Shown one piece after another: positions 3,098 to 58,735 of a stretch of DNA of 64,000 bases. Positions within the stretch are counted from its first letter, which is position 1. Each line of letters starts with the position of its first letter. Under the pieces are notes generated by a model, which did not search any database, had not been told where the DNA came from, and worked only from the letters and a program-made list of their open reading frames with translations. Origin of the DNA: Eledone cirrhosa (taxonomy: Eukaryota); NCBI GenBank assembly GCA_964016885.1, contig OZ024748.1, forward strand, positions 50,964,001 to 51,028,000. Reading direction: 5' to 3'. Position numbers and translations under genes: made by a program.

Positions 3098-3306
3098 GGA
3101 AAATTTTTGACCCCAACGGCAGAGCTCAAGTCGTTTCGACGGCTGTTTCTGGACCCAGTAATTTCTTGGTCCAGAAATAGCCGTCGAAACAGCTTGAGCT
3201 CTGCCGTCAGGGTCAAACATTTTCCTATTACCCACTCTACTACCCTAAGTATTGAGTACTCTGGTGCGTTATGGTCCATCTGGTTCCTTACCACACCTAC
3301 TTCGTT
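3098..3306 (+). mobile_element. fold-back element family F1 (palindrome + tail, half-hammerhead) inserted in (TA)n
   Basis: 3098-3225 is a near-perfect inverted repeat (GGAAAA..GACCCCAACGGCAGAGCTCAAGTCGTTTCGACGGCTGTTTCTGGAC / GTCCAGAAATAGCCGTCGAAACAGCTTGAGCTCTGCCGTCAGGGTC..TTTTCC). A unique ~80-nt tail follows (TATTACCCACTCTACTACCCTAAGTATTGAGTACTC...), with (TA)n on both sides. Confidence 0.85.
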
Positions 3307-3367
3307 ATATATATATATATATATAGATATATATATATAAATATATATATATATATATATATATGAA

Positions 3368-3582
3368 GGCGTGTGGCTGAGTGGTTAGAGAATTGGATTC
3401 GCAATCGTAAGGTTGTGAGTTCGATTCCTGGACCAGGCGATGCGTTATGTCCTTGAGCAAGACACTTTATTTCACGTTGTTCCTTCTACCTGGAGTTGCG
3501 ACCGATAGATAGTATCAGCAATTGGAAAGACCAACGGAAACATTGTTCCCTAGGTCCGATTTGACGAAAGTCGATCGTCTCC
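3368..3582 (+). mobile_element. tRNA-derived SINE family B (CORE-like central domain)
   Basis: A box TGGCTGAGTGG, B box GAGTTCGATTC, then TGTCCTTGAGCAAGACACTTTATTTCAC. Multiple related copies occur in the window. Confidence 0.8.
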
Positions 3583-6269
3583 TATATATAAATATATATA
3601 TATATATATATAGCTCCACTGCATATGCACCTTCTTAATAAGCCTGATACTTCCATTATCTATTATATTCCTTCATCATTCTAGATTATTCATCGCCACA
3701 AATATTATCCTTGGATCTATTTCCGAAATTTCATTTGTTGTCTCCACCCTAGAGTATTCCATCACGAATACTCAAGTATCTTTAGTAAGGAATCCACCAT
3801 CATTCACTAATTTATTGAGGATACTGCTCCTTGCTATTCTGTGTATTTATTTCAATCAAGGGATATGAAATCAAAACGAGAACATAGAGTGTATCGATTA
3901 AGCATGAACTATGTGCAACTTGTATGGGTTTGTGTGTGTGTATGGGGTGTGCGTGAGTAGGAATAAGATTGTAGGCCCATTATATATATATAGCATATAT
4001 TTATATACATATATATATATATAGCATATATATATATATAGCATTATATATATATATATATATATATATATATATGAACCCGGGATAAACTTATCTCTCT
4101 CTCGCATCTCTCTCTCTCTCTCTCTATATATATATATATATATATATATATATATATAGAGCATATATATATATATATATAGAGCATATATTTATATATA
4201 TATAGCATATATATATATACATATAGCATATATTTATATATATATAATATATATATAGGATATATTTATATATATATAATATATATATAGGATATATTTA
4301 TATATATATAATATATATATATATATATATATATATATTTCTATTTATATATATATATATATACCATATATTTATATATATATATATATATATAGCATAT
4401 ATTTATATATATATATAATATATATAGCATATATATATATATATATATATATATATATATATATATATATATATATTTAAATGTATATTATATGCCATTA
4501 GAAGCAATGTATACATGTACAGTGGAAAAAAGAAACTGTTTGTATATACACGCTGTAATGCATATATTAATGTATGATGTCCATCCGCATGTGACAGCAC
4601 TATATATAAACTCACGTTCATGAACCTATATATATATATCTGCTGAGCTACCTATGTATAGCTATGCAGTCATCTTTTATATATATATATATATATATAT
4701 ATATATATATATATATATATATATATATACATATATATATATATATATATATATATACATATATATATATATGTGTGTGTGTGTAAACATACATAAATAT
4801 ATATATATATATATGTAAACATACATAAATATATGTATATATATATAGATATATACAGTATATATATATATATATGTAAACATACATAAATATATGTATA
4901 TGTGTATATATAAATATATATATATGTATATGTGTATATATATATGTATAAAAATATATATATGTATATGTGTATATATATATATATATATATATATATA
5001 TATATATATATATAAGCACACATAAATATGAATATATATATATATATGTATGTATATATATAGATACGTATATATATGTGTATATATATATAAATATATA
5101 TATATAAATATATATATATATAAATAAATATATATAAAGATAAATAATTATATATATATATATATATATATATATAATATATACATATATATATATACAG
5201 ACAGAGAGAGAGAGAGAGAGATAATGGGAGTGCGTGAAAGAGAGAAAGTTAGGTGGTGGTGTGTAACGGGGTGTGTCCATGATGGAGCCCGTGTATAACG
5301 AAGAATTTGATGACCCTCGATGTAATCAGAAAAAGTAATTCCATCCACCTGCATCTAGATATAGTTTTCTCTAATGGTTCCCATTGCGGTTGCATGCCTG
5401 TCGATACCTTTCAACGTATATTACTTACGTCAAACGTACTCAAGGTTTTATGCATTTTTTACTGGTAGCTTCCGACTGGTCGAGCCAAAAGTCGCAATGA
5501 ATTCTGACTAGAGCAATCTTAAGGAATTATTGCACGTCAATAAAATATGTGTTTCTTGTGTGTGTGTGTATATCTATATATATATATATATATAAATATA
5601 TATATATATATATATATATATATAAATATATATATATATATATATATATATATATATTTATATATATATAATAACATACACACGTATAAACACACGCATA
5701 CACACACACATATATACATTTATATATACATATATATATATAAATATACATATACATATATATATATATATATAGGTACATACATATATATAGATTTATA
5801 TATATATATATATCTCACACTATATATATATATATATATATATATCGCATACACATACAGATAAACACACAAAAACACATATATATATATAAATCTATAT
5901 ATATGTATGTACCTATATATATATATATATATATATATAGGTACATACATATATATAGATTTAGATATATATATGTTTTTGTTTTTATCTGTATGTGTAT
6001 GCGATATATATATATATATAGTGAGAGGGAGAGGGAGAGAGGGAGATGGAGTGAGGGAGAGAGAGAGTGAGGGAGAGAGAGAGAGAGTGAGAGAGAGAGT
6101 GAGAGAGAGGGACTACGTCTTACCCGCACTATATAATTGTCTTTTCTTTAGGAATATTCTCTTTTTGTTTCTTTAACATTTTATAGGCAAATCTATAGTT
6201 TTATATTGGACATTAGCAGAGTCTGTCTGTGCAATATCTTCTCTTATATTTCACTACATTAACTGTCCT

Positions 6270-56393: not shown

Positions 56394-57149
56394 TATATAT
56401 ATATATATAAACATGTATATATATATATATATATATATATATATATATATATATATATATATATATATAATGAATTTATTTTTAGTATCATAATGAAACA
56501 AACGCTTTTAAGAGACTGCAGAAAAATCTTCATCAGCCTAAAGAAGCCAAACTTATAATTGTTAAATAATTTAATTACACAGATTGAAGTATATGAGAAT
56601 CCTTAATTAACAGACCTCTTAAAAGACACTGATTTCAATTTAATGCCTACAATTATATTAGGAATACGTAAATAGATACATAGGGCATCAGCATCATCAT
56701 CATTATATATATAAAGGGGAAACTTTAAAAATAATTACTCCGAGATTGTCATTACCAGTTCAACACACTCACACACGCATGCCTATATATATATATATAT
56801 ATATAGATATAGATATATATGCATGTATGTGTGCGTGTGTGTGTGTGTGTATTTGTGTGTGTATGTATTTGTGTGTGGGTGTGGGTGTGTTGGTGTGTGT
56901 GTGTGTGGGTCCAAGATGGCTGATACACGTGTTTTTTCCCAATAAAATATTTTTCCGTTCTTTCCTCTTCTCATTCTCAATCTTTCTATTTCACCTTTTA
57001 TTTCTTTTTCTAATGAAGCACTTGTGTCCGAAACTTAATGACTCGTTTCCTATTATTTTAGGCATTAAACAAATATACTTCTTCATTATATGTGTTGTTT
57101 GCTTTGTTGTCTCCGTTTACATTTTGCATATACATATATATATATATAT

Positions 57150-57336
57150 AACGAAGGAAATGTGGTAAGGAACCAGGTGGACCATAACGCACCAAAGTAC
57201 TCAATACTTAGGGTAGTAGAGTGGGTAATAGGAACGTGTAAGACCCCGACGGCTGAGCTCAAGCCGTTTCGACGGCTAATTCTGGAATTAGCCGTCGAAA
57301 CGGCTTGAGCTCAGCCGTCGGGGTCCTACTCGTTCC
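57150..57336 (-). mobile_element. fold-back family F1 copy
   Basis: Nearly identical to 52982-53167; TA flanks. Confidence 0.85.
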
Positions 57337-57917
57337 TATATATGTATATATCGTGCGCTAAGCAGCCAAAGTATACAAATAATCTATATCTGCATATATA
57401 TGGTGTTCCACAAAAATGTTTACACATATTTATTAGATTGCTGTTTAAGTGTGTATACATTTTGGGGACACCCTGTAAATATATATATATATAGATAAGG
57501 TAATCGAGACTGCGTAAATGTGTATATAAATTTACACATTGAGTATTTCACTTGCAAATGGAAAATATGATATTTTAAAATGGTTTCAACACTCTTTGTG
57601 ACCCCATCAAGAACGCTAATAATATACAAATTCATACCACTATGTCAGTAATAATATTAGAAGCGAAGTTTTATATAAGTAGTTCCTTCTGGTTGTTTAG
57701 ATGATATACATTATTTTGAGGAAAAACCCAAAAGGATTAAATATAGATTCAAAATATTTATCAATGTCTTTTTTTCTTCGCGAATTTAGTCTGTTTCTAT
57801 ATCTACATACATACTGTGTACATTTATGTAATATCTACACGGTTTTGGTTATCTCTGTACTATGTATATACATACATACATACATACATATATGTGTGTG
57901 TGTGTGTGTGTGTGTGT

Positions 57918-58735
57918 GTTTCGACGGCTATTTCAGAAATAGCCGTCGAAACGGCTTGAGCTCTGTCGTCGGGGTCATACTTTTTCCTATTTCCCACTCT
58001 ACTACCCTAAGTATTGAGTACTCTGGTGCTTTATTGTCCATCTTGTTCCTTACCACAATTCCTTCATATATATATGAAAAGATTCAGAAACCCGAGGGTT
58101 GAGCTCCGGCCGTTTCGACTGCTAGATCCGAACTGAAGCGTCAGTATTCGAATGGCAGGAATCTCGGTGTATTATCCATATATGGACAGACAGTTAAAGC
58201 AAAATATCTTAAAAGTTCTCTTGTGTTTTTTTTTTCCGCGAGTGGTCAGTAATCGAGGTCAGTAAATATGGCTTTTCTTGTTTTTAAAAATCTAATGTAG
58301 ATAAGTACAATGCCATTTTAACATATTAGAAATAATTGATAAGGAAAAATTCTTTTTTAATATCGTGTGTGCGCGACTGACTAGGTTAACACTTCCAGGT
58401 CTGTAAATCTACTCACTCATTTCCTCTTGCTTTTTATCCTGTCTAGCCCCTTTCCTTGCCGCCATGACTGTAATAAATATAGATAATAACAAGACATTTA
58501 GCAGGAATAAACCAGCTATTTGAACAAGGGTGACCCCGCCCTATTACTGCCCACTCCCGGAGAGGTTTAGTTTTATTCCCGCCGTTCGGATACTGGCGCT
58601 TTAGTTCGGATCTAGCTGTCGAAATGGCCGGAGTTCAGCCATTGGAGTCCTGAATCTTTTCACATTACCCACTCTACTACCCCAAGTATCGAGTACTCTA
58701 GTGGGTTATGGTCTACCTGGTTTTTACCACACCCT
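57918..58735 (+). mobile_element. family F1 copy (57918-58065) and a diverged subfamily copy with arms 58076-58162 / 58575-58661, ~410-bp spacer and tail
   Basis: GAAAAGATTCAG..GAGCTCCGGCCGTTTCGACTGCTAGATCCGAACT versus AGTTCGGATCTAGCTGTCGAAATGGCCGGAGTTC..CTGAATCTTTTC, followed by the F1 tail ATTACCCACTCTACTACCC. Confidence 0.75.

Follow-up and report, generated by a model that had tools for sequence, protein, structure and literature searches.

F1 is an abundant family of short, often palindromic repeats that lie within TA microsatellites of Eledone cirrhosa, a species with a microsatellite-rich genome of 3.0 Gb. The family was analysed in a 64,000-nucleotide stretch of this genome (the window; positions 50,964,001-51,028,000 of OZ024748.1) and genome-wide. 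The results indicate that F1 copies are probably head-to-head stubs of a Penelope-like element (PLE), produced when both nicked strands of the target primed reverse transcription in the RNA leader and the reverse transcriptase (RT) ran off the 5' end of the RNA at position +1 or, less often, at +42. The analysis revealed the open reading frame (ORF) and repeat unit of the element, two outer ends of the insertions, one arm with a tail and one without, two walls at which the arms stop, and an added G at +1 or T at +42. The family is young, counts thousands of copies that are nearly identical, and retains intact ORFs. Its predictions can be tested to the base: RT would start at +58 and ~+138, transcription would begin with a cap at +1 inside loop II, and RNA cut at +42 would be used.

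An F1 copy is built from a 58-nt arm, often mirrored, with an 80-nt tail on one side and TA repeats at the flanks. An exact 25-nt arm pattern gave 32,048 matches genome-wide, each palindrome being counted twice, and a fuzzy arm motif detected 17 arms within the window and none when the bases of the window were shuffled 20 times. F1 sequence was present at 12/12 of the start positions listed in the first-pass annotation of the window. The arm sequence, (TA)n flanks, palindromic short copies, one-sided tail and loop-III variants described there were also recovered, except that the copy at 57918 has (TG)n at its left and the copy at 56168 adjoins another copy.

The parent element and its hammerhead

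The parent ORF was reached through longer copies upstream of the arm, which gave decayed frames first and then, at locus L123, an open frame of 786 amino acids (aa). This frame lies between two hammerheads, with an inverted truncated copy before it. The parent unit measures 3,543 bp, and a tandem of five units with the same period was found. Pfam searches of the 786-aa ORF and two decayed frames, as well as a sequence search of the PDB, returned no match. The protein model (predicted local distance difference test, pLDDT, 93) had telomerase RT (TERT) as its best Foldseek match (E 2.1e-8), and the frame contains YRDD; no RNase H was seen in the parent RT protein. Structural matches of the C-terminal domain were I-TevI (Z 8.5, root-mean-square deviation 2.5, 89 aligned), T4 EndoII (7.2) and UvrC (5.5; VIA), while Foldseek on this domain reached only E 0.19. 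The invariant GIY-YIG residues Y, Y, G, R, E and N are all present, and Pfam GIY-YIG matched only 2/16 homologues, one of them below the cut-off.

The motifs RW(R/K), DKT, a CxCx5C linker, CxxC-E and N..CxH, without CCHH, are conserved across 115 aligned proteins; the L123 copy carries RWR, and K occurs in 70% of the homologues. The set RW(K/R), DKT, CxCx5C and CxxC/CxH without CCHH is given as defining the Hydra clade (PMC8557442). The element also displays partial tandems (pseudo-long terminal repeats, pLTRs), an inverted truncated copy and a one-sided tail, as PLEs do, and it is inserted in (TA)n, as in the Hydra clade. Judged by its motifs and target, the parent of F1 is almost certainly a young, (TA)n-targeting Hydra-clade PLE with a predicted hammerhead. 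The proposal that F1 represents PLE ends and moved through RNA is supported by the RT and GIY-YIG ORF joined to the arm. Two other placements were dropped: Naiad, because the endonuclease lies C-terminal and that of Naiad N-terminal, and Neptune, after the endonuclease position and the Hydra motifs had been established.

At three loci (L123:4879-7236, L134 and L135), the frame stays open upstream of the first conserved ATG, which lies at +232, and crosses the tail to enter the ribozyme; no in-frame ATG was seen in this extension. Other PLE families with Hydra-like motifs were observed beside or within F1 arms at L119, L122, L125, L126 and L129. At L119, F1-type hammerheads flank a divergent ORF, possibly owing to a nested insertion or shared ends.

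The window copy at 55715..56167 (minus strand) is the 453-bp 3' end of such an element, comprising the 3' untranslated region and a complete hammerhead, with a tail-less end at +58|TA and a 91-99% match to the L123 unit. The type I hammerhead (55727..55820, minus strand) matched the descriptor. Its core reads UUGAGAA (U3-A8), its stem II is interrupted by a single bulge, and its loop II spans ~35 nt. Its 5' side consists of the stem I 5' strand (55820-55816), the core (55815-55809), the bulged stem II 5' strand (55808-55800) and the extended loop II. The 3' side continues with the stem II 3' strand (55762-55755), GAAA (55754-55751), stem III with a palindromic loop and the stem I 3' strand (55731-55727), and the cut is predicted between 55732 and 55731. 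Three helices surround the core, and the 3-8 pair, G10.1-C11.1, GAAA and UH of a type I hammerhead are all in place. The minimum-energy fold is the hammerhead three-way junction; its z of -0.37 against shuffles is not significant, so stability alone is no evidence for a ribozyme. With a stem III of 5 bp, the predicted ribozyme could work as a monomer.

The F1 arm corresponds to the 3' half of this hammerhead, in agreement with the first-pass annotation. The accompanying claim that a CUGANGA half had been replaced by an inverted copy throughout the family fails at copy 55715, which is unmirrored and complete with the core UUGAGAA. The upstream half had been predicted as GACCCC-CTGANGA-GACGGCTA, yet TGANGA precedes only 13/32,048 arms and 13/13 of these are short junction products, the true core being a U3-A8 variant. 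There are 2,171 exact copies of the hammerhead 5' half genome-wide, and 29/30 sampled loci with this half continue into the arm. The core reads UUGANAA in 24/27 distinct descriptor matches, and in the older subfamily B, U3 is combined with A or G at position 8. The canonical CUGANGA core of Hydra hammerheads is absent here; as UUGANAA is a known functional-type variant, this lowers the label of a typical Hydra ribozyme and leaves that of a hammerhead as it was. An Rfam scan of the window gave no hammerhead, only microsatellite-driven rows of the microRNA type, among the 150/303 matches listed. Ribozyme searches limited to CUGANGA miss hammerheads of the UUGAGAA type.

Two walls within the predicted ribozyme

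Arm and junction samples were taken as the first matches on contigs 1-2 and are non-random. Position +1 is the A of TT(T/C)AGT in loop II, at 55772 (minus strand, TTT|AGTCC) in the window copy. Among the first 100 of 9,829 exact young arms, 34 have their 5' end at +1/+2 and 43 at +3..+21; 14 extend at least 82 nt upstream, and none ends within the 77 nt from -5 to -81. In subfamily B, +1 lies at an equal distance from GAAA despite a different loop. The word TT(T/C)AGT is initiator-like. The consensus of the downstream promoter element and that of the motif ten element fitted poorly by eye, and no claim is made for them.

The base preceding +1 was then considered. Solo arms beside (TA)n matched the pattern S|A+1 134 times, and the first 100 of these carried 91 G and 9 C, whereas the control pattern S|G+2 (24 matches) carried 15 G and 9 C (Fisher p 0.0014). 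Subfamily B pointed in the same direction, with 13 G against 4 C in an eye count. An extra G is described as a mark of capped 5' ends in L1 insertions (PMC11702581). The extra G at +1 is therefore likely to be a copied cap, and +1 itself is likely to be a capped transcription start within loop II. Several observations weigh against this assignment. Nine of the 100 arms reach -1..-4, past +1, and 9 more subfamily B copies carry AC or CC before +1. G is also commoner than C after (TA)n runs genome-wide (1530 G against 296 C, 84% G), so that 91/100 alone gives p 0.03; with such a G-rich background, the case for the extra G rests on the +2 control. Many solo arms that start at +2 elsewhere in the genome have a C before them (C|GTCC, C|GTTC).

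The second wall was observed in ultra-short palindromes. A total of 306 young-type palindromes with a centre of at most 30 nt were retrieved, and the first 50 were analysed. Inserted bases were found at 22/50 junctions, and the 44 arm stops at these junctions fell at +42 (30), +41 (1), +43..+45 (7) and further upstream (6). Position +42 is the first base past the predicted cut, and the base before it was T in 18 cases, A in 8 and G in 4; a T would be expected from an A added to cDNA running off an uncapped end. A further 18/50 junctions were mostly collapses at stem or loop III. The window stub at 24731..24836 (plus strand) belongs to the +42 class, as its tail arm starts at 24738, the first base past the cut. 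Among 185 tail arms surveyed (duplicates included), it is the sole true +42 stop, two false ones being due to G-run indels.

The +42 wall is likely the ribozyme cut site, which would make it a DNA record of cleavage in the animal. If true, the genome would hold evidence of germ-line cleavage by a PLE ribozyme. On the opposite side, the pattern admits only centres of at most 30 nt, which places the full distribution of ends beyond reach, and the 10/50 young junctions left out of the count (seven CCCCGGGG and three of 7 nt) could be collapses at CG microhomology. The older subfamily shows a weaker wall, with ~6 clear and 3 ambiguous cases among the first 50 of 124 (eye count). Metazoan PLE hammerheads are also described as cleaving poorly in vitro (PMC4209133), and the RNA-seq reported for Anolis has no reads ending at the cut (PMC11167929). 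The +42 ends may reflect either assembly of a split ribozyme or ordinary cis cleavage of read-through RNA, since both fit the DNA.

Formation of the head-to-head arms

Insertions stop on the outside at +58 or ~+138, and a TA belonging to the element follows in both cases; the tail (~80 nt) is the next unit's leader. Short palindromes carried exactly one tail arm in 49/50 cases of one sample and 40/42 of another. Two outer ends and one tail arm per insertion fit the in vitro behaviour of the Poseidon PLE, in which both strands are extended from two internal starts. Both arms belonged to the same subfamily in 81/82 short pairs against 37% expected, which indicates that they derive from one RNA or one particle. 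Position +38 was discordant in 1/42 short pairs and in 11/124 loose pairs (duplicates and non-partners included), and is useless as a chimera marker because it is a CpG. Two palindromes with a long central A/T run (L131:8504-8554 and L133:1539-1591) were observed, reflecting long untemplated additions or later expansion.

In the proposed mechanism, the GIY-YIG domain would cut both strands of the (TA)n target, and the nicked strands would prime within the RNA leader at +58 and ~+138, with RT copying the same RNA or ribonucleoprotein particle twice. A transcript starting at +1, from the internal pLTR promoter, would lack the core at its 5' end and open with just the hammerhead 3' half, and RNA cut at +42 would serve as a template too. 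On either template, RT would run off after 20-140 nt and yield F1, whereas uncut read-through RNA or religated circular RNA would yield long arms and tandem insertions. The two cDNA 3' ends would finally be joined head to head by end-joining or microhomology.

The first-pass annotation had instead pictured a single cDNA folding back inside stem II; the turning points observed here lie in loop II, outside that stem. A snap-back in a modified form, in which a tail-primed cDNA halts at +1 or +42, then loops back to serve as its own template as far as +58, where the endonuclease resolves it, would account for arms of one subfamily in 81/82 short palindromes and for the many hairpin centres with perfect or near-perfect pairing; with R2 proteins, snap-back is known to occur once the cDNA is full-length (PMC11371274). 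We consider it unlikely on account of the 25 long two-armed insertions, which were picked for opposite-strand hammerhead 5' halves. By eye count, the tail-less arm is longer and holds sequence absent from the tail arm in 13 of them, the tail arm is longer in 10, both arms are equal in one and the tail is missing from another, so neither arm simply copies the other. Single added bases at +42 are also evenly divided (tail arm 4, tail-less arm 4), and some short copies pair a tail-less arm reaching +1 with a far shorter tail arm. These observations argue for two separate cDNAs, arranged head to head, over a fold-back.

The walls could also mark places where RT stalled at RNA structure (stem IIb or the three-way junction) or where palindromes tended to collapse later. 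Collapse at loop or stem III is indeed common (~14/50 young and more than half of 50 older ultra-short copies), and the A at +1 bulges out of the hairpin predicted for loop II. However, solo arms with no partner start at +1/+2 too, the extra G is position-specific, and 0/100 ends fall in the 77 nt above -4. A T or A is inserted at +42, and since no CCCC-C-GGGG occurs among the 50 young copies, this base does not stem from CpG decay. Stalling or collapse as the source of the walls is accordingly quite improbable.

A splice acceptor at +1, or an endonuclease that cuts there at TA, is more doubtful still. The upstream bases are acceptor-like (pyrimidines, then TAG), the Drosophila virilis Penelope is reported to have a 5' intron (PMC2377424), and both outer ends sit at TA as well. 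Against this, copies retain the A and G that splicing would remove, the wall is common to subfamilies with TTC|AGT, and the listed junctions have no common exon before +1. Finally, a miniature inverted-repeat transposable element (MITE) moved by a DDE transposase with TA target duplication, although suggested by short palindromes within TA repeats, has a negligible chance of being correct, because the arms run on into the linked RT and GIY-YIG ORF, the centres are variable, tandems of 3,543 bp exist and the tail is one-sided. The earlier view that F1 is not a MITE held, as longer copies with a catalytic-core 5' half exist and no DDE linkage was found. MITE-like, abundant palindromes in (TA)n can therefore be retrotransposon stubs.

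The head-to-head reading by two cDNAs leaves room for a bolder suggestion, which we put forward as a rather unlikely possibility. The mRNA would start inside its own hammerhead, so that the capped leader holds the substrate half only. The missing half would come from the distant 3' end of that 3.5-kb molecule or from a sister transcript, and the split ribozyme so formed would cleave off the capped leader of 41 nt in the germ line, switching the mRNA to a circularisation template. The F1 stubs, in their tens of thousands, would retain this start site, could fire outward and could be cut in trans. Cofolding predicted that an RNA starting at +1 and the hammerhead 5' half assemble the hammerhead (ddG -11.3 kcal/mol), and a read-through transcript of a palindrome was predicted to form a -130 kcal/mol hairpin hiding the substrate strand. 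The F1 stubs themselves look like dead by-products.

Known systems and remaining features of the window

Earlier publications describe inverted PLE insertions with a tail, the Hydra clade and U3-A8 cores. Both the role of PLE hammerheads and the formation of inverted tailed insertions are treated as unsettled in PMC8557442 and PMC11167929. A search largely confined to openly available literature listed no report of a mapped start within a PLE hammerhead, nor of insertions that end at its cut site. As described by Craig et al. (2021, PMC8557442), Hydra-clade elements, including Hydra-1_Obim and Penelope-13_HM, share with the F1 parent the C-terminal GIY-YIG domain, the motif set, the (TA)n target, an inverted 5'-truncated copy, a tail at one end and a hammerhead near the 3' end. 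The hammerheads in supplement S2 of that report are all CUGANGA with a loop II of 3-10 nt, in contrast to UUGAGAA and ~35 nt in the F1 parent, and the F1 ribozyme differs in sequence from that of Hydra-1_Obim. The unit is also longer (3.5 kb against <3 kb), as is the tail (~80 against 30-40 nt). Another Hydra family of octopus, with a canonical hammerhead, is already catalogued in the supplement (PMC8557442).

The minimal PLE hammerheads described by Cervera and de la Pena (2014, PMC4209133) are likewise of type I, with a long bulged helix II (bulge near the 5' end), a short helix I and a palindromic loop III. U3-A8 covariant cores in Schistosoma and opposite-strand pairs 100-700 bp apart are further similarities, whereas the 5-bp stem III of F1 is a difference. 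The account of cleavage in that paper contains no in vivo evidence for PLE hammerheads (PMC4209133). For the Poseidon PLE of Anolis, both strands are reported to be cut and extended in vitro, and the tail is defined by the two internal sites at which RT begins (Frangieh et al., 2024, PMC11167929). Poseidon shares the AT-rich target, two-strand extension and tail-defining starts with the F1 parent and belongs to another clade. Its cleavage is described as dispensable in vitro, with no reads at the cut, whereas some F1 insertions stop at the cut; the +42 wall, if it holds, adds to that study (PMC11167929). The D. virilis Penelope resembles the F1 parent in its internal, TATA-less pLTR promoter (PMC2377424), but its start lies upstream of the intron and hammerhead (PMC2377424, PMC4209133), whereas that of F1 probably lies inside the hammerhead. 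Metazoan non-LTR retrozymes are, like F1, non-coding and PLE-derived with a related type I hammerhead (10.64898/2026.07.22.740005, PMC7229834), but they form tandem repeats with a whole ribozyme per unit, in contrast to the half ribozyme of F1 stubs (10.64898/2026.07.22.740005). F1 was not assigned to them, as its short copies hold the 3' half only and the tandems seen are coding 3,543-bp units.

The other F1 copies were mapped onto the window. On the plus strand, short palindromes with a tail lie at 3098..3306 (centre 14 nt) and 39719..39917, and one with a partly deleted tail arm at 17555..17703. The copy at 39937..40078, also with a tail, collapsed at the loop-III GAGCTC. At 56168..56247, next to copy 55715, a short palindrome with a truncated left arm has a G before +1; at 57918..58066 the left arm is truncated too and a tail is present. 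A solo tail-less arm from +1 to +58 stands amid TA repeats at 24846..24903 and is a stub separate from 24731. A diverged palindrome of another subfamily, with a loop III of the AAGAGCTCA type, occupies 33585..33740 (right end approximate), and the older subfamily B insertion at 58076..58740 has two arms ~410 bp apart, a tail at the right and the core deleted in both arms. On the minus strand, short palindromes with the tail at the left were located at 52982..53168 and 57150..57337.

ARAGORN found no tRNA in the window. A frame at 39286-39657 (minus strand) looks by eye like a LINE endonuclease-RT linker and had no Pfam match, whereas a 122-aa frame at 63570-63938 (plus strand) contains C2H2 zinc fingers (Pfam zf-C2H2, E 3.9e-7) and may belong to either a gene or a retroelement end. 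A tandem array of 15 copies of 161 bp extends over 28428-30882, with a strong G/T skew and TGTGG/TGTAG words. An abundant SINE-like interspersed repeat, with at most 18 overlaps in the self-comparison, was observed at 6267-7290, 14375-14840, 23942-24158, 41411-41862, 44938-45147, 46147-46387 and 62204-62623.

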